A stretch of 64,000 nucleotides of DNA from Naegleria gruberi (GCA_000004985.1 GG738869.1), one strand, 5' to 3'; positions 1,615 to 63,456 are shown, counted from the stretch's first letter. Translations and numbers: made by a program. Notes: a model not told the origin generated them from the letters alone.

Positions 1615-2728
1615 TTATTGTTGTGGATTCTTGATATCAAATTGAGCCTTGACGTGTCCCTTGTGATTAATAAATGAAACGCTCATGGATGATTTGGTCA
1701 ATTGAACAGCTGTGAATGCAGATTCTTCCAAATAATATTTCAATCCAGGATGAGTTGGATCAATTTCACCCTTATGGACCTTACTTCCACCTCCACTGAC
1801 AATTTGATGCATACAATTATTTCCATTACAATCAAATCCATTCAAATATTGTAAATTGTGATCGTGTCCAGATAAGTAAACATAAAATCCATTCTTTTGA
1901 AGGAATGGTTCCAACTTTTTGGTAATATCAATATTGTCTCCATGTTTACCAGCAGACTTGATTGGATGGTGACCAACAGCAATCTTGAAACTAATTTGGT
2001 TTTCTCTAGAAATACTATCAATAGTTTGTTGCATGAATGCAAGTTGTCTATTGATGTCCTTTTGAAGAACAAGTGCAGTCATATTGACCTTGGAACTGGC
2101 ATAATATGATTCAATCATTGGACTTGTATCAAAAACAGCAAGTAGAATATTCAAATTACCAACCGAAATCACTCTAGCATAATATTCATTAGGCAAATAA
2201 AACTTGCTCGAATGTTTCTCTCCATTATTATACCTCAAACTGTACTCCACTTCAGCATGAGCATACCCATAATATTCATGATTTCCTAATGCATTATAAA
2301 ATTGGTTACCAAAAGCATGACGAGGTCTATAAACATCTTCAAAACTTGATTGAAATTGTGAATCATGAATTCCAGAAACTCCATTCGGATAGAAATTATC
2401 ACCCACTCCAAGAGAGAAATCACAACTTGGAGCCACACTTGTACACCATTTAGCCATTTGTTGGGCAACCTCAAGCTATTTCCAAATTGGAATTATTATC
2501 CAAATTATTTAATTTATATAAATTTACCTGATTATCACCTCCATTTCTTCCATAATCTCCAATCACTGTAAAATAGGCTACATTTCCATCATCGGATGCT
2601 GATAATACTTTCTTATTTCCAACTCCAACCTTCAAATGAAAGCCTTCAACACCCGAACGGATAAAGTTCAACACGACAACAACAAGCAGAACAACCAAGA
2701 GAAAAAATCTATCAACTTGTTGAGACAT
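1615..2728 (-). CDS. purple acid phosphatase / tartrate-resistant acid phosphatase type 5-like metallophosphoesterase. Exon 1 is 2528-2728, exon 2 is 1615-2475, and the intron 2476-2527 is 52 nt.
   Basis: Exon 1 encodes a signal peptide and the motif FTVIGDYGRNGG. Exon 2 carries GDNFY, GNHEY and GHDHNLQ, which together are the dinuclear-metal phosphoesterase signature of the ACP5/PAP family. The intron reads GTAAAT...AATAG on the minus strand, and the reading frame is continuous after its removal. Confidence 0.8.
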
Positions 2729-2848
2729 TTTTTTGTAATGATTTTTTAAAATAGATTATAAGAGGTGTTTCATGGTGAGGAGTTAATTTTTCCAAATAAA
2801 GAAGATTGTAAAAAGATTTTTCATTGAAATACAGTGAATATTGATGAA

Positions 2849-3433
2849 CTAATTAAAAGCACCTCTGATGAGAATTGGATTTTTGGATGCTTGTTTTCTT
2901 CTTGGACAGGCATACTTGGTAATAATCTTGAATTCATAGGTGTACTCCTTTTTCAAGAGTTTTTTACTCTTTCCAATGTAATGTCCATTAAAGTCAACCT
3001 TCTCATCACAAACTAGTTCAAATTTAGCTCCTGATAATTCATTATTTGAACTGAGAATCATGTCAAATTCCACAACAATTCCATGGGCAATATTTGATGG
3101 ATCAAAAAGTGAAATTTTAGGTCCTGGTTTACCAATATTTAAACATCTGTGAAAATAATTATCAATGTAAACAATTTGATAGGATCCATGATTGGTGGCA
3201 CATGTAGCATTGGTTGGAATGACTGGTTTGCATAGATTTACCATATAATATGATCCTGGAATGTAGTCTGGTACTTGCCATCCCGATTGACCGTTATCGG
3301 ATTGGGACAAGTCAACAATCATTCCATCCTTTTCAATAGAACAATCTTGAGAGTAAACTAAACTAACGGAAGAAGAAAGAATAGCACAGAGCAGTAATAA
3401 ACAGCAAAAAGTAACAGTTGAAGTGAAATGCAT
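2849..3433 (-). CDS. secreted protein with a mannose-6-phosphate-receptor-homology (MRH) lectin-like domain
   Basis: N-terminal signal peptide. Conserved Cys spacing and the C-terminal motif YTYEFKIITKYACP are typical of MRH domains (OS-9, glucosidase II beta, GNPTG). 194 aa. Confidence 0.45.
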   Translation of the reverse strand: MHFTSTVTFCCLLLLCAILSSSVSLVYSQDCSIEKDGMIVDLSQSDNGQSGWQVPDYIPGSYYMVNLCKPVIPTNATCATNHGSYQIVYIDNYFHRCLNIGKPGPKISLFDPSNIAHGIVVEFDMILSSNNELSGAKFELVCDEKVDFNGHYIGKSKKLLKKEYTYEFKIITKYACPRRKQASKNPILIRGAFN

Positions 3434-3673
3434 TTTTTTTTTCGAAAAGAAAACGAGACGAATCTTGTTGAACTGGAAGGGCTTTTAGTTTAACCTTTCG
3501 TAAATGATGACAAGCATCATCTTTTGTAAACGAAACCTTAGAAATCAAGCAATATCAGTGCGACCTTACTGTAAAGCGCACTTTTTCCACTTTTACTTTT
3601 TCAACAATGCAAGCTTCTTACTAATTCATCAAAACCAAACAAGCACTGGCATATTAAAGACTCCTTAAAAAAA

Positions 3674-6600
3674 ATGTCGCGCCCGATTTCTTTCTCAAAT
3701 CGACACAATGTTCGAGGGGTGGCGATGTTGTATGTTGGTGGCTTATTGATGATGTTGATGATGATGATAGTTTTGGGATTTGGTGTTCAGGAGGGATCGT
3801 GTACGGTGTATGAAGTGAGAAATTCGACTTCCTTGTGGGACATTGTTCATGGAAATAAGTTGGTACCTGGTGATGAAGGTAAGTATCATGATTTATTCAT
3901 CATTCAATTTGGATGATATGGTGATTAGTGGTATTGAGAGAGGGCAATTATACATGCTATTATCAAAGTACTTGGTATAGAAATATTGTATTGAAAGGTC
4001 TTACTAATGCTCCTATTACTATTAGAGCTGCCAGTGGAGAGAAGGTTTTGGTCGAAGGAGATTTGAATGCTAGTCAAAATTTGTTGAATTTTAATGTAGA
4101 AAACTTTATTCTGAAAGGTATTGAATTTAGATATGGTGATAGAGGACTGAGATTTTTTGGTGCTAGCAATGTTCTATTGGAAGATTTACACATTCATGAT
4201 ACCAGTGATGTTGGTATGGCAATGAACGATCGTGATGTTACCTATTCTAATGTTACAATTAGGGAAGCTTTTGTGTTTTTACTTTATTAGAAACTGGATG
4301 AAAACAGACACGTTCAAATCCACCACACTCATGGTACTGGAGAGTGCTTCTACTTGGGCTGTAATGATGATGCTTGTCGTTTGATTAATTCACTTATTGA
4401 ATATAATTATTGCCATCATACATGTTGCGTTCAAGGTGATGGTATCGAAGTGAAGAGAGGTTCCTACAATAATGTTATTCGCCACAATGTCATTCACGAT
4501 ACTCACTATCCTGGAATTATTGTGTACGGTGCCAACAATGGTATTCCAAATATTATTGATTCCAACATTATTTGGAACGCTGGTGATAATGGTATTCAAA
4601 TTGCTGCTAATACCATTGCTCGTAACAATATTGTACTCAACTCAAAGATGAATGGTATTAGTATTCAACCTAATCAAGGCAATCCAACAGCTGTTATTTT
4701 GGAACATAACACTGTCATTGGAGCTCTCAGTGGGTCGTGTCTCTCTACTTATAGTACATACATTGGTTCAGAGTTTGTGATTGCAAACAATGCATTCTAT
4801 TGTGAGAATGCTAGTGCAATTTCTGAAACCAATGCAAACTCCAAAACTGTCTATCTTTCTAATGTTGTGAAAGGAAAAGTTACAAGCCAATATGCCAGCA
4901 ATATTATTTATGGAACTGGGTTGAGGGATTTTACCAGTACTGCTTCTCTTCCTTTCAACACTTATCCTTCCCTTGGTTCGTCCTTACTTGGAGTTTCAAC
5001 CTACATGGCTAATACATCAACTCCTTTGGATTTTGATGGTCGTGACAGAAGTGCAGCCTCACGTATTGATGCAGGTGCTTATCAACGGGTTGCTCAAAAC
5101 TCACCAACATGGATTCCAGTAGCTGGTTTCAAAGATGGTTGGAGCAGTCCTGCTCAATCAACTTCTCCAAAGCGTGTAAAGCCTGTTCCTTCAGATAATG
5201 CACATTACAATAGAACAACTTTTATCATCACTCCACAAAATGGTTCTTCATTATTTGACTTGATGAGCACTTTACAACCTGGAGACACCTTATTGGTACG
5301 AGCAGGCACTTATCCTGTTAAATTTGCCAATGCTTGGTTTACCAAGATTGTCCTCTCTGGATCTCCATCAAATCCAATTACTGTTTCTGCATGGCCTGGT
5401 GAAAGAGTTGTTTTGTATGGTGATCCATACGGATCTCAAAACATAATCAACTTGGAAGTTATGTACTTTGTCTTCAGAGGTTTTGAAATGGTTTATGGTT
5501 CCAGAGGAATTAGACTTCATGAATCCTCTCATTCAATCTTTGAAGACTTGAACGTGCACCACACTTGGGCAAATGCAATCTCTGCAAATGATAAGGGTGT
5601 TCATTATCAAAATATTACATTCAGAAATAATCGGGTTGCTCATACTCATGGTACTGGAGAATGTTTTTATTTGGGTTGCCAAGATGCTGCTTGTATCTTT
5701 TCAGATTCTCTCATTGAAGGAAATCTATGTGAATACACGTGTTGTGAACAAGGTGATGGTATTGAACTAAAGCATGGTTCTTACAATAACATAGTTAGAA
5801 ATAACGTTGTTCACGACACACCATATCCAGGTATTACCACTTATACTACTGGGGGCAATGCTCCAAATATTATTGAGGGAAATTTCATTTTTAATACTGG
5901 TGATAATGGTATTCAATGTACATCAGGTCAAATTATTCGAAACAATATCATTGTCAATGCAAGCATCAATGGTATTGATATTCACGATGATGGAGCTGTT
6001 TCTGATCTTACCATCACTCATAACACTGTAATTAACGCCAAAATTGCTTGTTTTTCTGCTGGTGGTTTACAAACAGCTTCAAACGTAATTATTGCAAACA
6101 ATGCTTTGTTTTGTAAGTTTCATACTTTAAATGATTAACTAATCATTATAGGTGACAACTCTCAATACGGATATTATGAGAGATATTTATCTGATAAGAA
6201 GACTAGCACTTTTTATTCGGCAAGAAACTATTATTCAGGAAAAACAAATGGTGTTGGCATTGATTTGGTAAAGGTCAATAACAGTTCTCATGACATACTG
6301 TTGGGTATTGATTTACTGAATGCCTATCCAACATCGATCAGTAACCTTATTGGAGCGGGTAGCCTAAAGTATTCAACACCTTTGGATTTTAATGGAAATT
6401 CCAGATCATCAACTCCAGATGTTGGCGCTTATCAATATTCAACCCCTTCAAATCCAGGTTGGGTTGCTAAAGGATGGTTCAAGAATGGATATAACTCAGT
6501 ATCCGTGTCAGGAAATTGGGAATATCCAAAGAATGTCCTTATTCCTCAAGACGACGATTCTTATATTGGAATGGTTTATCACATCACAGAAGCCAATTAT

Positions 6601-19437: not shown

Positions 19438-19563
19438 GGTCTGGAAGTGTGTAATTTTATTGGTCATTTCCATTTGGATACTTGTTTGGTTTTCTTGTTA
19501 TCTTCTTATAAGTGGTTGCTGAATGAATCCTTTTTCAAGAAACAACAACACAATAGCAATTTC

Positions 19564-22500
19564 ATGGGCAAGATTAATGATGGTGAATGTGTTAATGCTT
19601 TCAATTATGTTAGAGATTTGGAACGTGCAAGAGAACAGTTTGATTCATCGTATTCGGAAAGAACAACTTCTATTGGTGATGATGAAATTCAACATGTTCT
19701 TGATGGACATATGGTCAATTGGATTTTATTACTCCAAAGAGTGTTAAAGATGAGACCAGAATTGCAGAGGCAGATAAAGGAGGATGGAGGTGCTGATTGG
19801 TTGGTTCGTGCAGTGTCTTTAAAAACACATCACCCAGTAATTCATAATATGGCAAGTGCTAAGAAGTTTCTCCAATTAATGAAGAAATTTACAACTTTAC
19901 AAGGTCAACCGTATGCAGAAATGAATTTTGATGAAAAATTTGAAATGCTCAAGGTTGTGACAAGAACATTTCTTGTTACAATGAATGGTTTAGAGCAAGT
20001 CCACAAATGGTTTTTGGATGGTAATCAGGATTTATCTGTGAATCAACTAGAGAATGATAGAGATCACTTTCGTATAAGAATAGTTGAAATTTGCATTAGA
20101 AATTCAACAAGCTTACAAGGACTTGCAGGAGACTTATACTCAGACAATAGTGATCCAAGAGCAATTGTCAAACTCAGAAGTTCACCGAAAGGAAAATACT
20201 CAAAGAGTCGTTATAGATTATATTTTGGTGTTAACACAACCTTGACTGTATTATTTTCCTTTCCAAGAATGGGATTGACATCTCAATTATTTCTTTCAGA
20301 AAATTCAGATTTGGAAAGTTTAAAGGATTTGAAAACTGTTGCAGGAAATTATTGGGGAGAAGAAACAGTTCTCAAGATTAAGCAAGATTTTTGTAATAGC
20401 ATCAATAATGGTAAAAAGCCAACAGTTTCAAAGCAAGATTTTTCAAAATGCAAACATTTGGAAAGAATTTCACAAGAATTTAGAGCTGCTCGAGTTTTGA
20501 AAAGTTATCAAGATTCTCCAATTACAATTGCCGGTTATTCATTTCATCAATTATGTCAAAATACCAGTGGAATGCATTCGTATAAGTATACTTATTATTG
20601 TGGAGATTTGGCTGATGAATTGCCATTGGGAGTGGAAGATGTGAAGGAGTTTTTTATTCCTAGTCATCTCAATCCAGATTTGTACAAACCAGAAAATCAA
20701 TTGAAATTAACAGTTCGTTTATCGCTCTTAAATACTCCAATATCTCCTACGATTAATATTTCAGAATATCAAGTTATTGAAGATGTTGGTCTTTTCACAG
20801 ATGGTTGTGGTTTCATTTCTCCTGATTTAGCAAGAGAAATTTATAGAAAAATTAAACAGGCAGAATCTAGAGAGAAAGTTCACGTATTTGAGAATGCACA
20901 ATACATGGTTGATGTACAGATGATTTATCAAGATTCTGATCCAGTTGAGGATGATATGGATGATAATGTTCCTTCAGCATTTCAGATTCGTTTTAGAGGA
21001 GCAAAAGGCATGCTCCTACAAAATCCAAATGTGAAAGGAATTGTATTAAGAGAATCTATGGTTAAATTCAACGTAGATTTAGATGAAGATCTCGATGAGG
21101 AAGACGAAAGTCTTTCGAATATCCATGTAGTCGGTTATTCAGAACCATCTAATTTTGCATTCGCCAACTCAACAATTTTGTACATGATGAGTGGATGTGT
21201 TGATGGAGGTGAGAAATTTGAGGGAATAATTATGAATATGTGGAAGGATTATGTTAATGACATTTTAAAAACCTATTCTAATGAAGATACTTCCCAATTG
21301 ATGAAGAAATATTTCAAAGAAGGCGATTTTCATGCCTTAAACATTTTCGGATTGACCAAAGATGTTGCACTCGCTTTCCTTGCAGGACCATTCAGAACTC
21401 AATTGTTGAATCTTAAACTCCCTATTCAAAATGCTCGGAGAGTTTACGGAGTTTGTGATCCACTCGAAGTGTTAGAACCAGATGAAGTTTTTGTTAGAAT
21501 TAGAATGGAAGATGGCACTTTGAAAACCTTGGAAGGAACTATTGCCATCACTAAAGAGCCATGTCTTCATAGAGGTGATTTACGTTTGCTGAAAGCTAAG
21601 AAAATAGAGAGTTTAGAATATCTTTCAGAAGTAATTGTTTTTCCTATTAAGGGAGAAAAAAGACCTATTCCTAACATGATTACAGGAAGTGATTTGGATG
21701 GTGACAAATATCTTGTCATTTGGGATGAACCTCTTGTTTCATCTTTCGTCCAACAATTCGAACCTGGAAACTTTGATGAAGAAATTGAAGGAGAAAAACG
21801 TAATTTCGAACCAGATGTTTTTAAGGACTGGATAGGATTGAGACATTCCTATGTAGATTCGTATGGATATGAATGGAGTAAAGGTGAGAATTGGAAAACC
21901 ATGCAAAGACTTTCAGATATTGTAAATATGGCTGTCGATGCACCTAAAAAGGGGAAAACATTCAAGGCAGGTGCAATGGAGAAGGATATTGTTAGAAACT
22001 TTCCGAAATATCCTCATTTCCATAATTCAAAGACAAAGGAAGCTGTTAGAGTGAGTACTTCAGTTGTTGGGAAAATGTATGATTTTGCAATTGATAGAGT
22101 TACTGAGCGTTTTAAATTTCAGCCAGTTACTGACAAGCGTCAAACATCAACTGACGACAAGGAATATTTATTCTTGGATAATTTATACCAAGTATTGCGA
22201 AGGAATAAGGATATTTCAGTCAATCAGTTTTTGAACTTTATTTGGAAACATTTTTCAAACATTTTATTGAGAAGCACTACAATTCAATTTGCTTCTGAGT
22301 TTTTAGATTCGTTTTGGAGATTCTTATGTATGTTGACAATACGAAAAGAGAAAACTATTATATTGTGTTGTCTTAACACAACTGTTGATAAGGTTAATAA
22401 CAGTTCTATGAATGCAATTATTAGCGAAATGACAAAGAGCGATAATTTAGTACTAATGGTTCAAGGAATATCCGAAACTAAACTCAAATTCAAAGAAGAT

Positions 22501-24555
22501 TTGCAAAATGACAAGATACATGACTCCTCTGCATGTTCTTTATTCAAATTTTCCAACTCGAATGTTGAATTTATTCATTTCCTTTTTTATGAAATATTCT
22601 TTGATGCAGCTTCAAGAATCCAAATTGATCTAGGGTACAATTTGCTTACCAATTATACCCTATCTCAAACCCTATTTGAAAATATTGTAGAACCATCGAC
22701 TTTGAATCCAGTTCTCTTTAAAAAACCAAAAACTATCTTTGAAATAATTTACAAAGCTTGCAATGGCAAAGACTCAGATAGAAAGAAGCATGCATTGTAC
22801 ATTGTTGGACTTTTATTCAAGAATGGTATAATTTTACCTAGAAACTATGATTTGGCTATCAAATGCTTTAAACTGGCACTTTCAAAAGAGAACAATATCC
22901 GAATTGGATTTATACCATATTTGTATAATAGTGAAAAACGACCTGTAATGAAAGAATTGAAGATTCTGGCAAAGGCAGGATATGCTGAAGCACAATACAA
23001 CTTGGGAAGATTAAGCTATTTTGATGGCGATCAATGGTCTGCTTTGGAATGGTTGAAAAAAGCTGCTTTTCAATGTGTTCTTAATATTGAAAACAGAGGA
23101 TTGGATAAGAAGAACACTCTTTACTTTTTATCAAATCTCTACAGGGATGGTACTATTGTTGAGTGGAATAATGATAGATATCTTCAATTATTGGAAGAAT
23201 CTGCTAAATTAGGATCTATTGATGCAATGTACAAGATTGGAAGAAGGATGGAGTTGACCAAACAGTATTCATTTGCTTGTTTTTGGTATGAGAGAGCAGC
23301 CTATGAGGGAATATTAGAAAATTATTTGCAAGGTTATGGAATGAAAAACTCTTGTCGATTCAGCTTGGAAATTGATGAATATGGAATTGATTCAATGAAT
23401 AGATTGCCACCTCTTCCATTGCAAAATGATCTACAAGTTGAAATTCAACTTGATATTTCAATAGAAAGTCCTCTCTTGAAGAAAAATATGCTATTTGTGC
23501 AGAGTTCAAATCCAGTTTTCCAAACTTTTTGTAATGATGGAACAATTATTCCACCAAACGAAATTGAAGAATTTACCAAGATTCTCCCAAGTTCTAATAT
23601 ATTACAAAAGAAATATGAAAGGAAATATGAAAGCATCCATGACTCAGCAAAGAGAACTATGGAAAAAGCAGAAAAAATGCTGAAATTGGCTAACCAAACT
23701 ATTGCTCATATAGATAGAATTTTAAACAAGGGAAAGAGTTCAGATTCGAAAGAATCTCCTCTTGAAAATGAGAGTAAAGAAGAAGTAGAAGAAATATCTA
23801 CTGAACAAATATCAACTGAACAAGAAGATACAAAAGAATCTATTATTCCACACACAAAATGGAAACTGATTTATAGAGGAAGTAAGGATGGATACGAATC
23901 TAATGATTTCCATAGAAAGTGTGATGATAAAGGTTCCACTTTCATCATAGTCAAGACTAAAGAGGACGAAATATTTGGAGGATATACAACCCAAACTTGG
24001 AAAATTCCCCAAGCAAATATCTTTGGACACACACAACGAAACGATGAAAATGCATTCTTATTCATTCGTTCCAAGAGTCGCAAATATTTTAAACTTCCAA
24101 TCACAAATCAACCAAGTATTGATTGTACTCACGCAAGATTAATTGACTTTCTTGATTTTACCATACCAAATAATTGTGATATAATTCCAGGACATACTAA
24201 TTTCGGAATGAATTATCAACTTCCAAAATGGTCTAAGGGAAATGGATTCAGTTTTAGTGAATCTCTTGATAATAGAAGAAGTTTTTATGTGGAAGAAATT
24301 GAAGTTTATTCATTAATAGATTCTGAAGATGAAAATAGTCCACTCATGTCTGGATCAATCAATCTTTCTCAGATAAGAACAGATGGTCCTATGTTTAATT
24401 GGGATGATTATTTGAGCTACGTTAGAGCACGAAATAGTGATCCTTATGGTACAAGAGCATACACAGAAAGTGTAAGACAAGCAAGAATTTCAAGTGATGA
24501 AGGAATTGAAAGATTGAAAGACAAGTTGCGTCTAATGGGAGTTTTCAAGGAATAG
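19564..24555 (+). CDS. cellular RNA-dependent RNA polymerase (RDR/QDE-1/EGO-1 family) fused to C-terminal Sel1-like repeats and a TLDc domain
   Basis: Uninterrupted 1702-codon ORF (19447-24555); the first ATG is at 19564. The catalytic core has AFQIRFRGAKGMLLQNP and the cellular-RdRP signature GSDLDGDKYLVIWDE (DLDGD, about 21690). Residues around 22900-23300 carry Sel1-type repeats (AEAQYNLGRLSYF..., AMYKIGRRMEL...). The C-terminus (about 23850-24300) has WKLIYRGSKDGYESNDFHRKCDDKGSTFIIVKTKEDEIFGGYTTQTWK, typical of TLDc. Confidence 0.8.
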   Translation: MGKINDGECVNAFNYVRDLERAREQFDSSYSERTTSIGDDEIQHVLDGHMVNWILLLQRVLKMRPELQRQIKEDGGADWLVRAVSLKTHHPVIHNMASAKKFLQLMKKFTTLQGQPYAEMNFDEKFEMLKVVTRTFLVTMNGLEQVHKWFLDGNQDLSVNQLENDRDHFRIRIVEICIRNSTSLQGLAGDLYSDNSDPRAIVKLRSSPKGKYSKSRYRLYFGVNTTLTVLFSFPRMGLTSQLFLSENSDLESLKDLKTVAGNYWGEETVLKIKQDFCNSINNGKKPTVSKQDFSKCKHLERISQEFRAARVLKSYQDSPITIAGYSFHQLCQNTSGMHSYKYTYYCGDLADELPLGVEDVKEFFIPSHLNPDLYKPENQLKLTVRLSLLNTPISPTINISEYQVIEDVGLFTDGCGFISPDLAREIYRKIKQAESREKVHVFENAQYMVDVQMIYQDSDPVEDDMDDNVPSAFQIRFRGAKGMLLQNPNVKGIVLRESMVKFNVDLDEDLDEEDESLSNIHVVGYSEPSNFAFANSTILYMMSGCVDGGEKFEGIIMNMWKDYVNDILKTYSNEDTSQLMKKYFKEGDFHALNIFGLTKDVALAFLAGPFRTQLLNLKLPIQNARRVYGVCDPLEVLEPDEVFVRIRMEDGTLKTLEGTIAITKEPCLHRGDLRLLKAKKIESLEYLSEVIVFPIKGEKRPIPNMITGSDLDGDKYLVIWDEPLVSSFVQQFEPGNFDEEIEGEKRNFEPDVFKDWIGLRHSYVDSYGYEWSKGENWKTMQRLSDIVNMAVDAPKKGKTFKAGAMEKDIVRNFPKYPHFHNSKTKEAVRVSTSVVGKMYDFAIDRVTERFKFQPVTDKRQTSTDDKEYLFLDNLYQVLRRNKDISVNQFLNFIWKHFSNILLRSTTIQFASEFLDSFWRFLCMLTIRKEKTIILCCLNTTVDKVNNSSMNAIISEMTKSDNLVLMVQGISETKLKFKEDLQNDKIHDSSACSLFKFSNSNVEFIHFLFYEIFFDAASRIQIDLGYNLLTNYTLSQTLFENIVEPSTLNPVLFKKPKTIFEIIYKACNGKDSDRKKHALYIVGLLFKNGIILPRNYDLAIKCFKLALSKENNIRIGFIPYLYNSEKRPVMKELKILAKAGYAEAQYNLGRLSYFDGDQWSALEWLKKAAFQCVLNIENRGLDKKNTLYFLSNLYRDGTIVEWNNDRYLQLLEESAKLGSIDAMYKIGRRMELTKQYSFACFWYERAAYEGILENYLQGYGMKNSCRFSLEIDEYGIDSMNRLPPLPLQNDLQVEIQLDISIESPLLKKNMLFVQSSNPVFQTFCNDGTIIPPNEIEEFTKILPSSNILQKKYERKYESIHDSAKRTMEKAEKMLKLANQTIAHIDRILNKGKSSDSKESPLENESKEEVEEISTEQISTEQEDTKESIIPHTKWKLIYRGSKDGYESNDFHRKCDDKGSTFIIVKTKEDEIFGGYTTQTWKIPQANIFGHTQRNDENAFLFIRSKSRKYFKLPITNQPSIDCTHARLIDFLDFTIPNNCDIIPGHTNFGMNYQLPKWSKGNGFSFSESLDNRRSFYVEEIEVYSLIDSEDENSPLMSGSINLSQIRTDGPMFNWDDYLSYVRARNSDPYGTRAYTESVRQARISSDEGIERLKDKLRLMGVFKE

Positions 24556-55611: not shown

Positions 55612-57429
55612 TTAATATAAAGGTTCAAATTTACCCTTTTTCCATTTTCTATAACATCTTACCAATCTATCACTCACAATACCAACAATTAATCCAACAA
55701 GACTGAATAAAAGGAATGATACAAGACCTGTGGTAAACCAATTCTCATAAACAAATATGTAAAATCCCTCTGATGATGAATACGGCCGGGAAACATCTAT
55801 TTCTATTGAACTTGTGAGGAAAACATACTGTTGTAGTGGAACTTCACTATTAACAGTTACAACAGCAATTAAAGGATAGTAATCTCTATCAAATCCATAT
55901 TTGTCCTTGTGTGTATAGGTTGTATAACTTCCGAGTGAGATAAATCGCCAACGAAAATTAACAGTTGAATCCAAATCTAACTGATCTCTGTATGGGAAAT
56001 TGAGTCTAGGATCATTTGGTGAAAAGTCTTCATATGTTGGTGGTTTCTCCTCTGAAAAAGGTCCTCCAAATATTGAGAATGATGACATGTAATTATGAGG
56101 ATGGGTTGTGGCAATAAGAAACAAATCGAATGGTGACGTATCCAACAGAATATCACCAGCTCCAAAGTCTCTACATCTCATACCACTTTCTTGATAATAA
56201 ACCTTCTCCTCCAACATGTCTATTTTTTGTAAGATGCAAAACTCCTTTCTATAATATTTAACAATTACAAACAATTCAGTTGCATCACTTTTAGAGACCT
56301 TAATATTGGAATGCTCTGATTGTTCATGTGGTAAAAAGTTAATAGATTTCGTCTCGTTAAATTCTAGCAAATCTATTTGTTTCACTTCTGAAACGATAAA
56401 TTCTTCATTCCCTCTCAAGTAGTGCACACCAACATAGAGGAACCTAATCTTGGCTGTCCTAATGTTAGCAAGCTCGGTATAAATATTTACAATATACATA
56501 TTTGAAATTGATATTAAATCCAAAAAGCCATCATAACGAATATCAATAGGTTGGTTGTTAATTGTTGGATCTATCAATGATAACTTAATAATCTTGCTTT
56601 GGGGCATTTTAAAATCATTGGCACTCGTTAATATGTACACTAATCTAGATTCATAATCTACTTCAATACTATTTACAATCTTTTCTCCAATTGTTGGATC
56701 TATTTTCTCAATTTTTACACACGAGTCTTCCAATAAAAATCCATTACTATCAATAATTGATATATTTCCATAATTTGTTTGAATTAGGAATACCTTTTGA
56801 CAAAAGAGTCCAATCTTATTTTGAGTAGCCATATAGGTTAAATCAACAAATGACAATATCAATGTAGAAGTATACGAATCAACATTCATGGATGTACATT
56901 TCAAATTCGAAGGGAATGTAAACACTTTCTGATCTGAGAGAGAAAATTCATACTGTTCAGAACTATTTCCATTAATCTTTTGATCAAATATCCTCAATAA
57001 ATACAAATTCTGTCCAACAGCTCCCTCCTCTTCTCCAAACACCAATGAAAGTTTCACAAACACAAATACTCTATTCACATCAGAAGAATAAAAATCAGTA
57101 ACTGTAAATATCTCCTCCGAGATTGAACTACTCATATTGGCCGTGACAGTGTGAAAGTTTGGTATTGTATTATTATAAAAGAATGGATATAAATTCTTCA
57201 CGTAAATACTTTTTCCATCATCATCATCGTTGGAAGACAATAGGGAATTTAAATCCTTATTTACAATAGTCTTGGTTGATTGTCCTGAATACTTCACTGA
57301 TGGTTCTGTCATTTGATTAAAATTGAGAACATTTCTACTTTCCGAAGAAAAGGCTACTAATTCCAAAATCAACAAGAATCCAACAAGAATAATCAAATAA
57401 TTAATCTTCTTCATCTGTTCCGAATTCAA
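55612..57429 (-). CDS. type I membrane glycoprotein with a large extracellular domain (hypothetical)
   Basis: 605-aa ORF. N-terminal signal (LIILVGFLLILELVAFS) and a single C-terminal TM (LVSFLLFSLVGLIVGIV) followed by a short basic tail. No domain recognised. Confidence 0.5.
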   Translation of the reverse strand: MNSEQMKKINYLIILVGFLLILELVAFSSESRNVLNFNQMTEPSVKYSGQSTKTIVNKDLNSLLSSNDDDDGKSIYVKNLYPFFYNNTIPNFHTVTANMSSSISEEIFTVTDFYSSDVNRVFVFVKLSLVFGEEEGAVGQNLYLLRIFDQKINGNSSEQYEFSLSDQKVFTFPSNLKCTSMNVDSYTSTLILSFVDLTYMATQNKIGLFCQKVFLIQTNYGNISIIDSNGFLLEDSCVKIEKIDPTIGEKIVNSIEVDYESRLVYILTSANDFKMPQSKIIKLSLIDPTINNQPIDIRYDGFLDLISISNMYIVNIYTELANIRTAKIRFLYVGVHYLRGNEEFIVSEVKQIDLLEFNETKSINFLPHEQSEHSNIKVSKSDATELFVIVKYYRKEFCILQKIDMLEEKVYYQESGMRCRDFGAGDILLDTSPFDLFLIATTHPHNYMSSFSIFGGPFSEEKPPTYEDFSPNDPRLNFPYRDQLDLDSTVNFRWRFISLGSYTTYTHKDKYGFDRDYYPLIAVVTVNSEVPLQQYVFLTSSIEIDVSRPYSSSEGFYIFVYENWFTTGLVSFLLFSLVGLIVGIVSDRLVRCYRKWKKGKFEPLY

Positions 57430-57673
57430 ATTCTACAGAAAATTCCTCTCGGAGGGTGGGTTTTGGATTGTTGTGTTTTGTGGTATTCCACCTTCATCCA
57501 CTAATCGGAGAACTTGAATATTTTTTTAAGAAGATTTTCTGCAAGATTTTTAAATATTTAAATATGTTACAAATCCATAAATAACCAATCAACCAAATAA
57601 AGAAAATAAAGGATTTTTTTAATAATTTTAATTGATATATTTTGATTTATTTTGAAAATTAGTGTTGATTGCT

Positions 57674-60600
57674 TTACTCGTATTGCTTCTTATCTTCTAA
57701 CGGAGTGTAGGCATATTTTTGGCTGAGCAAAGCTTTAAGAATTTCATCAGATTGACTCAAAATGTCCTTTGGTAAGTACATGATTTCTTGTGTCACTCTA
57801 GTGGCAATGACACGTTCAGTTGAGGTTGGTTTGAATTGCTCGTTCAATTGTTTAATCTCAGATGTAGCAAGTGCCTTACGGGCAGCTCTAACAACTCTAG
57901 ATCTAAATCTACGCATGAGAACCTTTCTGATGAAGATCTTCTTGGCCTTCTTACCCCTGATGGCAGTTTCCTTATTCTTCTTGGCAATCTTCAAGATCTT
58001 CTTGATGGTTCTCTTGACCTTCTTGCCATTCTTCAAAACTTGTTTGAGAACAATCTTCCAAACAGCATTCTTAACTCTCTTATTGAGTTTGATAACTTGA
58101 ACCTTCCATGTGGCAGAAGTTCTAGTGTAACGAATGGTTTGGCCAGCAAGATCCTTATCAATATCAGAAACAGAGGTTGGGATCTTGGTATAGATAATCT
58201 TGGTGAAGACATTGTCCTTCAAATAAGAGGAGACCAATTCATTGATAAATGATGGTCTCAAACCACATCTCTTAGTACCAGCAACATAGGCACATACAGC
58301 TGGAGCATGAGTATTGTAACCAAGTTGTTTGATGAGCTTGACAATGGCCTTGATGTGATTATCGAGAGAAGTGAGACAGATGGTTTGTTCCTTAACTTGT
58401 TCTTCGAGGAGTTTCTTTCTCTTTCTAGCCATTTCGTCAGCCTTCTTAAACATGGAAGCAGAAATCTTCTTCTTGATAACCAATTGCTTCAAGATAATTC
58501 TGAGATTGACCAAAGCTCTTCTGTAAATGGTGATCTTCTTTCTCAAAACAACAATATAATTGTATCTCTTTTCAATGGCAATCTTGACTTCTTCCTTAGT
58601 TTGGAAGTTATTCTTGACCTTATCGAAGAATGCTGGATCATACCAAACAGTGTAAGGAATGTAAACTCTCTTTGGAACATGTTTAACAATTGGAATGGTA
58701 ATCTTCTTTGATTTACAACACTTGCATTGGACACAATTCTTACATTGGCAGTATTTACAACCATAATTATCAACAGCAACCTTTTCAAAGTATTGAGAAC
58801 CTCCACATCTGTCATTACAATCTGGAATTGGTGGACAGACAATAATTGGTTCTCCCTTGCATTTACATTGATCACAACCATTAGCATCCTTAACCATTTC
58901 AAACATGTCAGAACCGCAGATAGCAGAACAGTTTGGTAAAAGATCTGGACAAGTTGGTTTGATACATCTACATCTAGTACAGTTGTAGTTATCACGATAA
59001 GTGACATACTTCAAAGTACCACAGGTATCTCTACAATTGACATCATCAGCACAAACTGGAGGAGTATTACAGGTACACTTGGTACATCCTCTTTCATCAA
59101 CAGTTGTTTCCTTAATACCAGCACTTCCACAAACATCTCCACAATTGGTTGGTGGACACTTGAATTCAAGACATTTGCATTGTTTACAACCATTAGCATT
59201 GTAAGACACTTCAGCAACACCGAAAGTACATTGAGCAATACAATCTGGTTCTGGTTGTGGGCAAGTTGGTGGAGCAATACATCTGCACATATCACATCCA
59301 GAATCATCGGTAATCATTTCATAAGGAAGAGTTCCACATTGAGCTTCACAAATTGGGAGAGTATCTGGACAAGTTGGCTTATAACATTTGCATCTAGTAC
59401 AATTGTAATTGTCACGATAAGTAGCATACTTCAAAGTACCACAGGTATCTCTACAATTGACATCTTCAGTACAAACTGGAGGAGTATTACAGGTACACTT
59501 GGTACAGCCCTTTTCATCAACAGTAGTTTCCTTAATACCAATAGAACCACAAACATCAGCACAGCTAGTTGGTGGACATTTGAATTCAAGACATTTGCAT
59601 TGTTTACACTTGTTGCTGTCATAGGAAACTTCAGCAACACCAAAAGTACATTGAGCAATACAGTCTGGTTCTGGTTGTGGGCAAGCAGTGTCATTACATT
59701 TACATGATTGACATCCCTTAGAGTCAGTAGTGTAATAGTAACCATTTGGACAATTAAGAGAGGTACAATCTGGTGGGGTAGTTGGACAAACTGGTGGTTG
59801 ATTACAGACACATTGACGGCAACCAGTATCAGTATTGTACTTGTATTGATATCCATATGGACATTGAACAGCATCACAATCAACAGCAGGGCATTGAGTA
59901 CACTTACAAACTGGGCATCCATTGGAGTCAGAATCATAGGTGTGACTAAGCTTATTACCACAAACTTGTTGACAATCTGGAGGACTTGGTGGGCACTTGT
60001 TACACTTGCACAAGTTACATTCAGAGCTAGGATCGAAAGCATAAGAACCACCATAAACACAGCTGCTATTACACTTTTCAATATTAACAACTGGACATCT
60101 CAAACATTCACAGGTTGGACAACGAGCACCATCACTTGATGTTTGTGTAGTATTGACATAACCGTATGGACAGTTAGCTTGACAGTAAGAAATTGGAGCT
60201 TCAGGACAAGTATAACAGACACACTTTGGACAACCATATTGATCATTCTTCAAAGAACCACCGTATGGACAAGTGACAGTATTACATTTGGAAGCATCAT
60301 CAGGTGTACAAGCTGGTGGAGGATTACATGAACAAGCATCACAACCATTGGCATCCTTACCAATAATATAACCATATGGGCAGACAGATTCACATTTTGG
60401 AGTTGGTGGACAAGAACAATTACAAACTTGACAACCGTCACCACGTCCTGAATCAGAAAGAGTGAATCCATACAAACAGGAAGCAGCACAATTAAGGGTT
60501 GGACAAGTCTTACAAGAACATTGATTACATCCAGTTGTTTGATTCAAAACAATATCATATCCCAAAACTGAGTTACATTGATCACAACTTGTGGCATTAA

Positions 60601-61114
60601 CACAAGGTGGTGGAATAACAATTGGTGGTTTACATGTACAATTAGTAATGCAACCAGAAATTCCTCCAACAGTTCCATAAGTAATATCGTATTGTCTGCT
60701 ATCACAGGTACCAATCAATGGACAAGCTTCAGTTTCAGTTTTACATTTACAGATACATTGATCACATCCAACAGAGTCCTTTGAAATAGATTCTAATAAA
60801 AGCCCTTTGTTGGCACATTCTGCAGTACAATCCTTTGATCCTGTTGGACAATTATTTGGACAATCTGGACAAACACATTTTCCGTTAACGACTTGAACTT
60901 TTCCACAAAGACAAACCACTCCTGGACATTCTTCAAATCCTGGTTCTCCATCATTAGTAATGGCACCATCAAAATACATTGGATTTTCAGAACCAGTTGA
61001 TTGTTGGAGAGATGAATGTGTCATAAAGGACACAATCAACAAGACAACCAGCAATAAAGCTGATATCAAAATTGGTTGTTGCTTTCTCATATTATTACTC
61101 AATCGCACACCCAA
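57674..61114 (-). CDS. secreted cysteine-rich repeat protein with about 20 antistasin/TIL-like Cys modules and a highly cationic, helix-prone C-terminal region of about 330 aa
   Basis: 1146-aa uninterrupted ORF with a signal peptide. It has dozens of modules such as CPYGYxYxxDxxGCxxCxC. The last 340 residues (57674 to about 58700) are K/R-rich amphipathic sequence such as KKVKRTIKKILKIAKKNKETAIRGKKAKKIFIRKV. The plus-strand ORFs at 57762-60784 are antisense artefacts. Confidence 0.65.
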   Translation of the reverse strand: MGVRLSNNMRKQQPILISALLLVVLLIVSFMTHSSLQQSTGSENPMYFDGAITNDGEPGFEECPGVVCLCGKVQVVNGKCVCPDCPNNCPTGSKDCTAECANKGLLLESISKDSVGCDQCICKCKTETEACPLIGTCDSRQYDITYGTVGGISGCITNCTCKPPIVIPPPCVNATSCDQCNSVLGYDIVLNQTTGCNQCSCKTCPTLNCAASCLYGFTLSDSGRGDGCQVCNCSCPPTPKCESVCPYGYIIGKDANGCDACSCNPPPACTPDDASKCNTVTCPYGGSLKNDQYGCPKCVCYTCPEAPISYCQANCPYGYVNTTQTSSDGARCPTCECLRCPVVNIEKCNSSCVYGGSYAFDPSSECNLCKCNKCPPSPPDCQQVCGNKLSHTYDSDSNGCPVCKCTQCPAVDCDAVQCPYGYQYKYNTDTGCRQCVCNQPPVCPTTPPDCTSLNCPNGYYYTTDSKGCQSCKCNDTACPQPEPDCIAQCTFGVAEVSYDSNKCKQCKCLEFKCPPTSCADVCGSIGIKETTVDEKGCTKCTCNTPPVCTEDVNCRDTCGTLKYATYRDNYNCTRCKCYKPTCPDTLPICEAQCGTLPYEMITDDSGCDMCRCIAPPTCPQPEPDCIAQCTFGVAEVSYNANGCKQCKCLEFKCPPTNCGDVCGSAGIKETTVDERGCTKCTCNTPPVCADDVNCRDTCGTLKYVTYRDNYNCTRCRCIKPTCPDLLPNCSAICGSDMFEMVKDANGCDQCKCKGEPIIVCPPIPDCNDRCGGSQYFEKVAVDNYGCKYCQCKNCVQCKCCKSKKITIPIVKHVPKRVYIPYTVWYDPAFFDKVKNNFQTKEEVKIAIEKRYNYIVVLRKKITIYRRALVNLRIILKQLVIKKKISASMFKKADEMARKRKKLLEEQVKEQTICLTSLDNHIKAIVKLIKQLGYNTHAPAVCAYVAGTKRCGLRPSFINELVSSYLKDNVFTKIIYTKIPTSVSDIDKDLAGQTIRYTRTSATWKVQVIKLNKRVKNAVWKIVLKQVLKNGKKVKRTIKKILKIAKKNKETAIRGKKAKKIFIRKVLMRRFRSRVVRAARKALATSEIKQLNEQFKPTSTERVIATRVTQEIMYLPKDILSQSDEILKALLSQKYAYTPLEDKKQYE
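58890..59740. repeat. two tandem copies of an intragenic duplication of about 420 bp (about 90% nucleotide identity) inside the cysteine-rich gene
   Basis: 58960-59160 versus 59380-59580 and 59161-59290 versus 59581-59710 align base for base with few substitutions. The protein segment CPQPEPDCIAQCTFGVAEVSY...CTRCKCYKPTCPD is repeated as CPQPEPDCIAQCTFGVAEVSYNANGC...CTRCRCIKPTCPD. Confidence 0.7.
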
Positions 61115-61770
61115 TAAATATATATATAGAAAATAAATTAACCCTTCTCAAAAGTAATATTTTCAGTTCAGTTACAAACGCAACGATCGTTATTAAAGGT
61201 TCAAAACGTTGGCGCTTTTTTCGAAAGTCTATTGTTGTTGTTGTTGTTCAAACTTTGGCGCTCAACTCTACGTTCAAAACTCTCTCAAATATGATGAATG
61301 AAAAAAAACAACGTTGGGAAGTGCGTGGGTGTTTTTTGAATTTTTTTAAGATGGATTTTAGGCGTGACGGTTGAAATAGCGTATCAGTCAAGCATCAGCA
61401 GACATGACTTGGTGAAAGTTGCATTGCAATGTTTTTGGGTGCTGTTGTTCTGAGATACTGGGTGGGAATGTGAATTTTTGTAAGGTGGTTTGATTTTGCT
61501 TGTTGTATTATTGTTCGATGGACTGGTTGACTGGTTGACCAGTAAATTTCTGAAATAATTTTGAACAAATGGGAAAGAGATGATATTACTAGAGATGGTG
61601 TTGAATTAAGATTAGGAAATATCCAAATTCATTTAATTTCCAATTCTCTTTCTTCCTAATTACTTTTGTAAACTGTACAATTTAAATTCAATATTCACAT
61701 ACAACAATGAACCCATTACAACATAAAGTTAAGATATTTAACAAGAACTCAATACGAAATCAAAAAAAAA

Positions 61771-63456
61771 ATGTCCAGAATAACTGCGTTCCAACAGGAT
61801 CAACCTGCTGTCTTTTCAGAACCGAGAATTTCCCACAAAAAGACAACCTCTCTGCTCGTTGATAGAAATCCGGAATTTTTGAAGGGAAAAACAGTTTTTC
61901 AAGCCTTCGGAGAACATCAATATGATGTACAGGGAAATATTAATAATTGTAAACATTTGCAGGTGGGAGAGTATTTTCTAAAGGTATCTAGTGGTGCTCA
62001 TCACACGTTTCTATTGACAAATTATGGAAATGTATTGAGTTTCGGAAGGTAGGTTTTATTGTTAAATAGATAGATGATATATGTAATTTTTGTAATTTAT
62101 GTTGACTATGATGATCAAATTAGAAATGGTGATGGTCAGTTAGGTTAGTACTATAATTGATGATCAGTATTCAAATTTTCTGTTCTGATCATTATCACAT
62201 GTTAATTTATTAATAATTATTATTCATTATTTGATTATATTTAATTATGATGATTATTATAATTGAAAATTCAGGAAATGGATCAATTGAATCAACTTTT
62301 AGAAAGGATATTCTACCAGTTTTTCCAAAATATGCCAATGAAGGAGAATCTGTTGTTGATGTTCAATGTGGATCCAATCACACAGTTATTTTGACCAATT
62401 TTTCGAATTGTCTTGGTTGTGGTTGGAATGAGTTCTTCCAACAGGGTCAGAAACGTCATGGTGTTCAAGTATCCAAGTTTGGGTATTTGGATATTGGAAA
62501 GCCAGTAATTATGGTAAGATGTGCTAATAATATGACCATTGTGCTTACAAAGGAAATGGAAATTTATGGAAGTGGACGAGTTGCTGCAACAATTACCTAT
62601 GAAGATTTTACTCTTCTTCAAGATTTTTCAGAGCTCTTATCAGATGAGGAAGTTATTACTGATATACAATGTGGATCTCAACACATCATCGTTTCTTCAA
62701 GTTTCAACAGAATTTTTGCATTTGGATCCAATGGTTTTACACAAATGGGAAAAAATGTCAAGGATATGGATAAATTTACTGAAATTACAAAGAATTTACC
62801 ATTTCCAAGAGATGAATTCAAGAGTTTCGCTACTGGATTATTGTTTACCATCTTTTTAACAAAGGGAGGTGGTGTTTACGCTTGTGGTTACAATGGATAT
62901 GGTCAATTGGGTACAGGTACCAGGACTGATCCAGAGGATTTTGTAAGAGTGAAAAATTTTTACAAAATTAAGAGTCAATCTCAAAGTGTTTTATCCAAAT
63001 TTGAAAAGAGGAAGGAATCAGAATATACTTGCTATAAGGCCTCACTCAATTCAGAAATTGGAAATAATGTCTATTACATTGATGGAAATGAAATTATTAA
63101 GAGCATCCATGCAGGCTCCTCACACACAATTTTTGTATCAAATATTGGAAATGTCTACACATGTGGATTCAACAAGGTAAGTATTGCATATGAGGAATTG
63201 TAAATGACTAATTTTCACATTAAAGTTTGGTCAATTGAGTCTTCCAACAGACGGAGATGATTATGCTGCAACATACTCTGCAACTCAAGTCGTTCTCTCG
63301 AGCCACTTGATCGATGTTCAAGTATTTGCCAATCCAAGTGCTAACATCACAATCTTAGCTGATAGACAACCAATTAATTCCTATATGAGCAATAATTTAA
63401 AGAAACGAGCAAGAGAAGGCGACCTTTCAGATATCATTCTCAAACACAAGCTTTAA
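61771..63456 (+). CDS. RCC1-repeat (regulator of chromosome condensation-like) protein. Exons 61771-62048, 62303-63176 and 63226-63456.
   Basis: Repeated RCC1 blades (GAHHTFLLTNYGNVLSFGR, CGSNHTVILTNFSNCLGCGWN, CGSQHIIVSSSFNRIFAFGSN, GYNGYGQLGTG, AGSSHTIFVSNIGNVYTCGFNK|FGQL). Introns are 62049-62302 (254 nt, GTAGGT...TTTTAG) and 63177-63225 (49 nt, GTAAGT...TTAAAG). Confidence 0.65.

Follow-up and report, generated by a model that had tools for sequence, protein, structure and literature searches.

Gene structure and locus

The 64,000-nucleotide stretch of the Naegleria gruberi genome analyzed here (GCA_000004985.1, GG738869.1; hereafter the window) carries on its minus strand a single-exon gene whose product joins a long array of cysteine-rich modules to a strongly basic C-terminal region. 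Read with the bacterial genetic code, the open reading frame (ORF) starts with a TTG and covers positions 57674..61114; the first ATG lies at 61090 and gives a product of 1138 residues, with a TAA stop codon at 57674-57676. From end to end, this product shows 100% identity to XP_002677029.1 (EFC44285.1, NAEGRDRAFT_58114), a 'predicted protein' of the NCBI and JGI annotations, which is the single N. gruberi sequence of the gene in the databases. The features discussed below are as follows.

57674..61090, minus strand: complete coding sequence in a single exon, 1138 residues plus TAA stop (XP_002677029.1 / NAEGRDRAFT_58114)
61010..61090, minus strand: signal peptide, residues 1 to ~27, with a basic n-region (MRKQQ) and a 17-residue hydrophobic core
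58718..60928, minus strand: acidic Cys-rich array, residues 55-791, made of six-Cys modules (18 canonical, 2 variant) with Pro-rich linkers and a Cys cap at either end
60326..60412, minus strand: module at residues 227-255, the best match to the Pfam family Antistasin (PF02822), over profile positions 1-26 of 26
59276..59695, minus strand: copy 1 of an internal duplication, residues 466-605, modules A1-B1-C1-D1; A1 has the ancestral junction and D1 is the most diverged
58856..59275, minus strand: copy 2 of the duplication, residues 606-745, modules A2-B2-C2-D2; D2 resembles the single orthologous module
57677..58717, minus strand: basic C-terminal region, residues 792-1138, net charge +56, member of an unnamed C-terminal domain family
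58634..58714, minus strand: motif KSKKITxPxVKHVPxRxYxPYxVxYDP, residues 793-819, directly after the Cys array; its family core is VPYxVYY
57710..58597, minus strand: predicted folded alpha/beta core, residues 832-1127 (AlphaFold2), in which three long helices come first, followed by a beta region of seven strands, then five helices and a final beta hairpin
58265..58294, minus strand: Cys933 to Cys942, the only invariant residues of the tail-domain family (28-sequence alignment)

The sole hydrophobic segment of the protein covers residues ~5-24 (KD19 value up to 2.7, as compared to a maximum of 1.13 elsewhere and a threshold of >1.4), which fits the signal peptide proposed in an earlier annotation of this DNA (hereafter the original prediction), and the orthologues have equivalent N-termini. 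The KD19 profile of the whole protein contains no further membrane segment and no hydrophobic C-terminus. The mature N-terminal part (residues 28-791) is acidic, with a net charge of -21 and an isoelectric point (pI) of 4.8. The tail (residues 792-1138) contains 59 Lys and 24 Arg against 27 Asp or Glu, i.e. a net charge of +56 over 347 residues, so the K/R-rich C-terminal region initially described is indeed present; the pI calculated for residues 788-1138 is 10.3.

The Cys array and the basic tail are colinear in five species, namely N. gruberi, N. fowleri, N. lovaniensis, the source of an environmental Naegleria-like contig, and Willaertia. Synteny is also conserved: the gene order in both N. 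fowleri and N. lovaniensis is RCC1-like, unknown, the gene under study, PPR-like, unknown and myosin I, and the environmental contig retains the PPR-like neighbour beside the gene. The claim that one exon encodes one secreted protein therefore stands, since no intron or frameshift separating the two parts was seen and the arrangement is kept across these species. The single ORF, the colinearity and the synteny in several species also led to the rejection of a wrong fusion of two genes. Altogether, there is little doubt that the gene is intact and confined to one exon, and that its product is a secreted protein of two parts, conserved in heterolobosean amoebae. The gene was already annotated, albeit uncharacterised, and a literature lookup by the identifiers of the gene and its orthologues found no mention of them; what is new is an overlooked antistasin-like array, unusually long and divergent, and a C-terminal domain family not described before.

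The cysteine-rich array

The protein contains 133 Cys in total. In the array, 18 modules fit the pattern C-x4-7-C-x3-4-C-x12-16-C-x2-C-x-C and two more are variants of it, in good agreement with the 'about 20' modules first counted. Short Cys caps lie at both ends of the array, the C-terminal one including the sequence CVQCKCC. All six Cys are invariant across an alignment of 19 modules, and each module probably forms three disulfides. The modules follow the six-Cys antistasin pattern, C-x(4-6)-C-x3-C-x(~10)-C-x2-C-x-C, with a central (C3-C4) loop that is 12-16 residues long versus ~10 in canonical modules, hence 2-6 residues longer.

The modules had been described as antistasin/TIL-like, and only the first half of this label holds. 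Pfam scans at E<=0.1 and at E<=10 gave no match to the TIL domain, and the sole family reported for the Cys region is Antistasin (PF02822). The N. gruberi score (17.4 bits for the whole protein, 19.2 bits for the Cys region) is below the gathering threshold of 21.2 bits, while the N. fowleri (22.6) and N. lovaniensis (22.5) orthologues pass it, with their counterpart of the module at residues 227-255 (CPPTPKCESVCPYGYIIGKDANGCDACSC) exceeding the threshold; the Willaertia and environmental Naegleria-like proteins score 19.2 and 15.6, respectively. When the 19-module profile was compared by hhalign with 17 published Naegleria antistasin modules, the two aligned in register over 26 columns (probability 92.9%, E 3.6e-7), and this 17-module reference set in turn matches guamerin, antistasin, hirustasin, bdellastasin and gigastasin in the PDB (E 1e-9 to 5e-7). 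Searched directly against PDB sequences, the N. gruberi module profile gave no match, including none to a solved antistasin. Because the modules align with Naegleria antistasin modules that themselves match the leech inhibitors, while their own PDB search is empty, profile alignment points to divergent members of the antistasin-like superfamily.

A 2025 study reported antistasin-like proteins from Naegleria and Willaertia, where this family, otherwise restricted to animals, had not been expected; 59 proteins were found, which fall into 10 orthogroups and have 1-11 domains each (mSphere 2025, PMC12482156). The orthogroup studied here (XP_002677029, XP_044566436 and XP_044551593) is absent from Table S3 of that census, which missed the largest array (~20 modules).

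In antistasin, the P1 residue, Arg34, directly follows the second Cys, the register being taken from the antistasin alignment (CSGVRC-R-VHC); family members that inhibit trypsin or factor Xa have a basic P1 (Arg or Lys). Its equivalents in the 19 modules are T D A E N Q N Q D T I A R E I G R S N (TDAENQNQDTIAREIGRSN): two of them are basic, most are acidic or polar, and they vary between orthologues. By comparison, the 17 Naegleria paralogue modules are largely basic around P1, which is Arg or Lys in 9 of them (consensus CRRYC); among the leech inhibitors, antistasin has Arg (CRVHC) and guamerin, the best match, has Met (CMIFC). Since the P1-equivalents are mostly non-basic and variable among orthologues, a classical trypsin/factor Xa-type inhibitor function seems unlikely for most modules.

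A four-module tandem duplication

Part of the array consists of two copies of a four-module unit. In an offset scan, the best 420-nt window at an offset of 420 showed 80% identity, versus at most 44% at 595 other in-frame offsets. Tandem Repeats Finder, run on positions 57000-62000, did not report this 420-bp repeat, which is detected by a repeat search as well as by the offset scan. The 420-bp internal duplication of the original prediction is therefore real, but its boundaries had to be corrected from 58890-59740 to the two adjacent units 59276-59695 and 58856-59275, and the ~90% DNA identity attributed to it applies to one module only. The divergence between the two copies, with synonymous (dS) and nonsynonymous (dN) values, is as follows.

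Whole unit: 79% DNA identity, dS 0.60, dN 0.17, dN/dS 0.285
327-nt core: 86% DNA identity, dS 0.49, dN/dS 0.18
Module A: 79% DNA identity
Module B: 85% DNA identity
Module C: 91% DNA identity
Module D: 63% DNA identity

The four orthologous sequences (4/4) all contain a single block, and the resulting 140-residue gap is exactly the difference between 1138 and 998 residues. Compared to these orthologues, the outer modules (A in copy 1 and D in copy 2) retain the ancestral sequence and the inner junction modules have diverged, D in copy 1 most of all. Positive selection on this diverged inner module (D1) was considered and ruled out (dN/dS 0.30). Synonymous divergence varies among the four modules at a marginal level only (chi-square ~6.9, 3 d.f.). 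As a yardstick, the same gene has a dS of 0.34-0.45 in the N. fowleri/N. lovaniensis pair. The dS between the units (0.49-0.60) is at least as large, which does not support the proposal of a recent duplication with a polymorphic repeat number; the duplication is an old event of the N. gruberi lineage, with an age comparable to that of the N. fowleri/N. lovaniensis split. The dN/dS between units (0.18-0.29) is below 1, as anticipated, so purifying selection has since maintained both copies.

The basic C-terminal domain

The tail is better conserved than the non-Cys positions of the Cys array. Its mean column identity is 75% among four orthologues; the two Naegleria orthologues are 66-67% identical to the N. 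gruberi protein over the tail (66% for N. fowleri) and 63-67% over the Cys array, and tail identity across genera is 52-67%. In the N. fowleri/N. lovaniensis pair, the tail has a dN/dS of 0.086 and the array one of 0.097. There are no internal repeats in the tail, a self-BLAST returning the identity alignment alone. Pfam reported nothing at E<=0.01 for the basic region of the window protein, the only hit being a non-significant one to Cylicin_N (E=5); in the other 27 members of the family defined below, four Pfam families appeared, each in one single member and below the family thresholds (E 0.002-0.006). A profile search of the PDB was likewise without significant match, the best being laminin gamma-1 and uS10 (14.8 bits) with E 0.08-0.09. 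The basic region was thus not traced to a ribosomal or histone-like family (uS10 E 0.09, no Pfam match), in line with the original prediction.

An exhaustive hidden Markov model search of 1.84 billion representatives with a four-sequence profile of the tail retrieved 37 clusters at E<=1e-3, of which 25 reach E<=1e-10 and 9 reach E<=1e-30. (A word-indexed protein search with a 28-sequence tail profile was dominated by K-rich words and returned one query member.) The domain match reaches the C-terminus in all 14 full-length matches examined. Where the N-terminus of the relatives is present, it consists of a signal-peptide-like start, after which come Cys modules in some members and, in others, 90-390 residues rich in Ser, Thr and Pro (30-52%); the domain is next. 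The members originate from Naegleria, Willaertia magna, Acrasis kona and one EukProt entry, the rest being metagenome or Logan contigs. The pI of the domain ranges from 9.6 to 11.2 in 22 of 24 members; the other two (P0008 and P0013, JGI metagenome proteins) are acidic (pI 4.7-4.8) and yet keep the motifs and the Cys pair intact, so positive charge is not essential to the fold. The N. gruberi tail has the attributes of the family, that is, a domain of ~300-350 residues at the extreme C-terminus of a signal-peptide protein and the motifs VPYxVYY, LG[YF]...P..C-x7-9-C-GL, F[TS]K.IYT, LP and LL. In conclusion, the tail is no low-complexity filler but represents a conserved, previously undescribed domain family.

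One environmental member deserves a separate mention. Positions 2580-3872 of a 7660-bp Logan contig (L001, SRR22387979) encode a 430-residue protein composed of a signal peptide, a Thr/Pro-rich stretch and the basic domain. This contig is gene-dense, apparently intron-poor and eukaryotic, and its NmrA-like neighbour gene matches only unnamed relatives; the domain family therefore reaches an unsampled eukaryotic lineage.

An initial AlphaFold2 model built from four sequences was too weak for use, with a predicted local distance difference test (pLDDT) score of 63.5. With the 28-sequence alignment, the tail is modeled with a pLDDT of 80.6 and a predicted template modeling score (pTM) of 0.68, 168 residues having a pLDDT>=90. 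No relative of the predicted fold was found in the PDB or in a viral fold library. The Cys933-Cys942 pair sits in the seven-strand beta region, presumably as a disulfide across a beta hairpin of the model; Phe962 and Pro1107 are nearly invariant in the same alignment. The motif at residues 793-819 is almost invariant in the orthologues, yet the monomer model shows it as disordered (pLDDT 23-44), and it may be an oligomerisation or partner-binding strand. Two predicted helices are significantly amphipathic, residues 1023-1038 (KKVKRTIKKILKIAKK; hydrophobic moment, muH, 0.88, a value reached by 0 of 500 shuffles) and residues 906-922. Most tail helices are no more amphipathic than shuffled sequences; judging from the model, such a mixed picture is as expected of a packed bundle. 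As the second part of the protein, the tail is thus very probably a strongly basic alpha/beta domain of ~300 residues, with one conserved Cys pair and no described family.

Possible functions of the protein

The explanation that best accounts for the gene as a whole, namely a two-part secreted protein with a structural or adhesive role, has in our estimate a probability of about 0.45. The role taken by itself is somewhat more tentative: the protein may belong to an extracellular layer, e.g. the cyst wall or a surface matrix, as a structural or adhesive constituent. What argues for this role is the combination of a variable spacer with a conserved C-terminal domain, the pairing of an acidic rod with a basic head, and the nature of the hosts, since Naegleria, Willaertia and Acrasis all make walled cysts or spores. 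For Acrasis, the formation of walled cysts or spores is documented in PMC11589745. By analogy, a layout made of a variable spacer and a conserved interaction module is that of wall or matrix proteins. In such a protein, the basic C-terminal domain would serve as a docking or assembly module for a polyanionic partner, such as acidic glycans or the likewise acidic Cys rods of adjacent molecules, and the Cys array would act as a stiff, protease-resistant spacer at the place where relatives have a mucin-like Ser/Thr/Pro stretch. An oxidising secretory location would agree with the invariant Cys pair.

Several points weigh against this assignment. Expression, localisation and proteomic records of the gene and its orthologues were sought in the literature and none were found, the cyst-wall or matrix assignment being drawn from architecture alone; the supplements of the N. 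fowleri cyst/trophozoite RNA-seq study and of the Acrasis developmental transcriptome do not list these genes. No carbohydrate-binding domain is recognisable in the protein, the fold has no characterised relative from which to take a function, and the environmental members are not placed in any lineage. Finally, because of the two acidic members (pI 4.7-4.8), charge cannot explain the whole mechanism.

A different role follows if the array is taken at face value as a multi-headed antistasin-type serine-protease inhibitor, with a canonical binding loop on each six-Cys module, which would neutralise the proteases of prey, of competitors or of the amoeba itself and would be tethered to a surface by the basic domain. 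Such an activity is consistent with the in-register alignment to bona fide Naegleria antistasin modules (92.9%, E 3.6e-7), which match leech inhibitors, with the scores of the N. fowleri (22.6) and N. lovaniensis (22.5) orthologues above the 21.2 bits required by Pfam, and with the fact that antistasin-like secreted proteins are a recognised Naegleria/Willaertia family (PMC12482156). It fits less well with the N. gruberi protein itself, which remains under the Pfam threshold (17.4-19.2 bits), whose module profile has no direct match to a solved antistasin, and whose C3-C4 loop has 12-16 instead of ~10 residues. The P1-equivalent, basic in 2 of 19 modules and variable among orthologues, also contrasts with the Arg or Lys of 9 of 17 modules in the Naegleria paralogues, although guamerin has Met at P1. 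Moreover, the tail domain also occurs on mucin-like N-terminal parts lacking Cys modules, and its conserved function is therefore independent of inhibitor modules. For these reasons, we consider an inhibitor unlikely; the loss of the basic reactive-site residue rather suggests that an antistasin-like fold has been re-used as a structural rod. The conserved domain could also be a folded cationic effector that binds membranes or microbes and would attach to anionic bacterial surfaces or make them permeable, carried on a protease-resistant stalk and used in predation or defence; in a stronger form of this proposal, the tail would be cleaved at dibasic sites into antimicrobial peptides. Naegleria is a bacterivore, and the net charge of +56, the 20 runs of at least two K/R and the two significantly amphipathic helices (residues 1023-1038 and 906-922) go in the same direction. 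However, the tail contains neither internal repeats nor peptide units by self-BLAST, its dibasic runs are irregularly spaced, most of its helices are no more amphipathic than shuffles, it is predicted to adopt a compact fold (168 residues at pLDDT>=90), and two family members are acidic. It also has no saposin-like domain, as judged from the absence of a Pfam match, saposin-like proteins being the known pore-former class of Naegleria. Its dN/dS of 0.086 denotes strong purifying selection and is lower than the values of antimicrobial effectors, which are generally reported to evolve fast. Overall, an effector role is improbable.

These results do not support the antimicrobial-peptide-like region or the polyprotein precursor put forward in the original prediction: with no repeats, a dN/dS of 0.086, a compact alpha/beta prediction (pLDDT 80.6) and a conserved family found in many proteins, the protein is very probably not an antimicrobial-peptide precursor. 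There is a small chance that the basic domain is instead a new folded cationic surface-binding module with which heterolobosean amoebae and unassigned environmental eukaryotes capture, agglutinate or permeabilise bacteria, borne on interchangeable Cys-rod or mucin-like stalks; the antimicrobial idea would then have been right on function and wrong on mechanism (a domain, not released peptides), and a microbe-binding domain would be a new kind of predator-prey effector. The least probable candidate is a secreted scavenger of nucleic acids (extracellular DNA or RNA) or of other polyanions or, as a variant, a mistaken fusion of an intracellular basic protein with a secreted protein. The pI of 10.3 and a weak, non-significant likeness to the K/R-rich protein uS10 (E 0.08-0.5, 14.8 bits) and to Cylicin_N (E 5) would be compatible with it, but none of the matches is significant and no nucleic-acid-binding fold was recovered. 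In addition, all full-length members of the family keep the fusion to a signal peptide, an extracellular domain would agree with the invariant Cys pair, and the ORF is continuous and syntenic in several species. If, on the other hand, the basic domain is an assembly module of the cyst wall or surface matrix, it would provide a first molecular handle on the heterolobosean cyst wall, including that of N. fowleri, whose cysts matter in water disinfection.

Other genes of the window

The window is nuclear DNA of N. gruberi, as the identity of the product to XP_002677029.1 shows, and the neighbours of the gene are of an ordinary eukaryotic kind: a myosin I, an SNF2 helicase, an RNA-dependent RNA polymerase (RdRP) and an RCC1-like gene. 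The gene directly downstream (55612-57429, minus strand) encodes a protein of 605 residues without Pfam match, which has a signal-like segment at the N-terminus and a membrane segment at the C-terminus; the corresponding position in N. fowleri and N. lovaniensis also harbours an unknown gene. The upstream RCC1-like gene lies in two ORFs (61771-62052 and 62247-63203, plus strand), probably with a short intron between them, and its counterparts in N. fowleri and N. lovaniensis encode 496 residues. Further away, a 1702-residue ORF (19447-24555, plus strand) contains a eukaryotic RdRP domain (PF05183, E 4e-72) together with a Sel1 repeat and, at the C-terminus, a TLDc domain, an uncommon domain set for an RdRP of the RNA interference type. 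A 594-residue ORF (4354-6138, plus strand) contains a right-handed beta-helix region (PF13229, E 6e-21), a domain more usual in bacterial or secreted carbohydrate-active proteins.

Comparison with known systems

The Cys array can be compared to the leech proteins antistasin, hirustasin, guamerin and bdellastasin (PF02822 / IPR004094), with which it shares the six-Cys pattern C...C-x3-C...C-x2-C-x-C in register, often a G-[YF] after the third Cys and a D-x2-G-C before the fourth, as well as secretion and a tandem arrangement of modules. It departs from them by having ~20 back-to-back six-Cys modules instead of one or two ten-Cys domains, a longer central loop, a sub-threshold Pfam score, a mostly acidic or polar P1 and a C-terminal domain of ~300 residues. 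The antistasin-like proteins of Naegleria and Willaertia (PMC12482156) resemble the protein in that they come from the same genera, have signal peptides and are built of six-Cys modules with fewer Cys than the leech proteins. Even so, the present array has about twice their maximum number of modules (11), its modules are more divergent and their P1 is mostly non-basic, and the basic C-terminal domain is found in this orthogroup alone.

Another point of comparison within the genus is provided by the naegleriapores of N. fowleri, which are made as saposin-like multipeptide precursors. Like these precursors, the protein described here is a secreted or vesicular, Cys-containing, candidate antibacterial product of Naegleria; unlike them, its tail lacks repeated peptide units, a saposin-like domain and any spacer or processing periodicity, and appears as a slowly evolving single fold.

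A parallel in terms of layout may lie in the secreted wall and coat proteins of wall-building protists, such as the Cryptosporidium COWPs, the Dictyostelium spore-coat proteins and the Entamoeba Jacob lectins. The N. gruberi protein differs from them in that no sequence or fold relationship to them was detected, no carbohydrate-binding domain was recognised, and its location in a wall is putative. The likeness is one of analogy: in both cases, a secreted protein would associate small disulfide-rich modules or Ser/Thr/Pro spacers with a conserved interaction domain.

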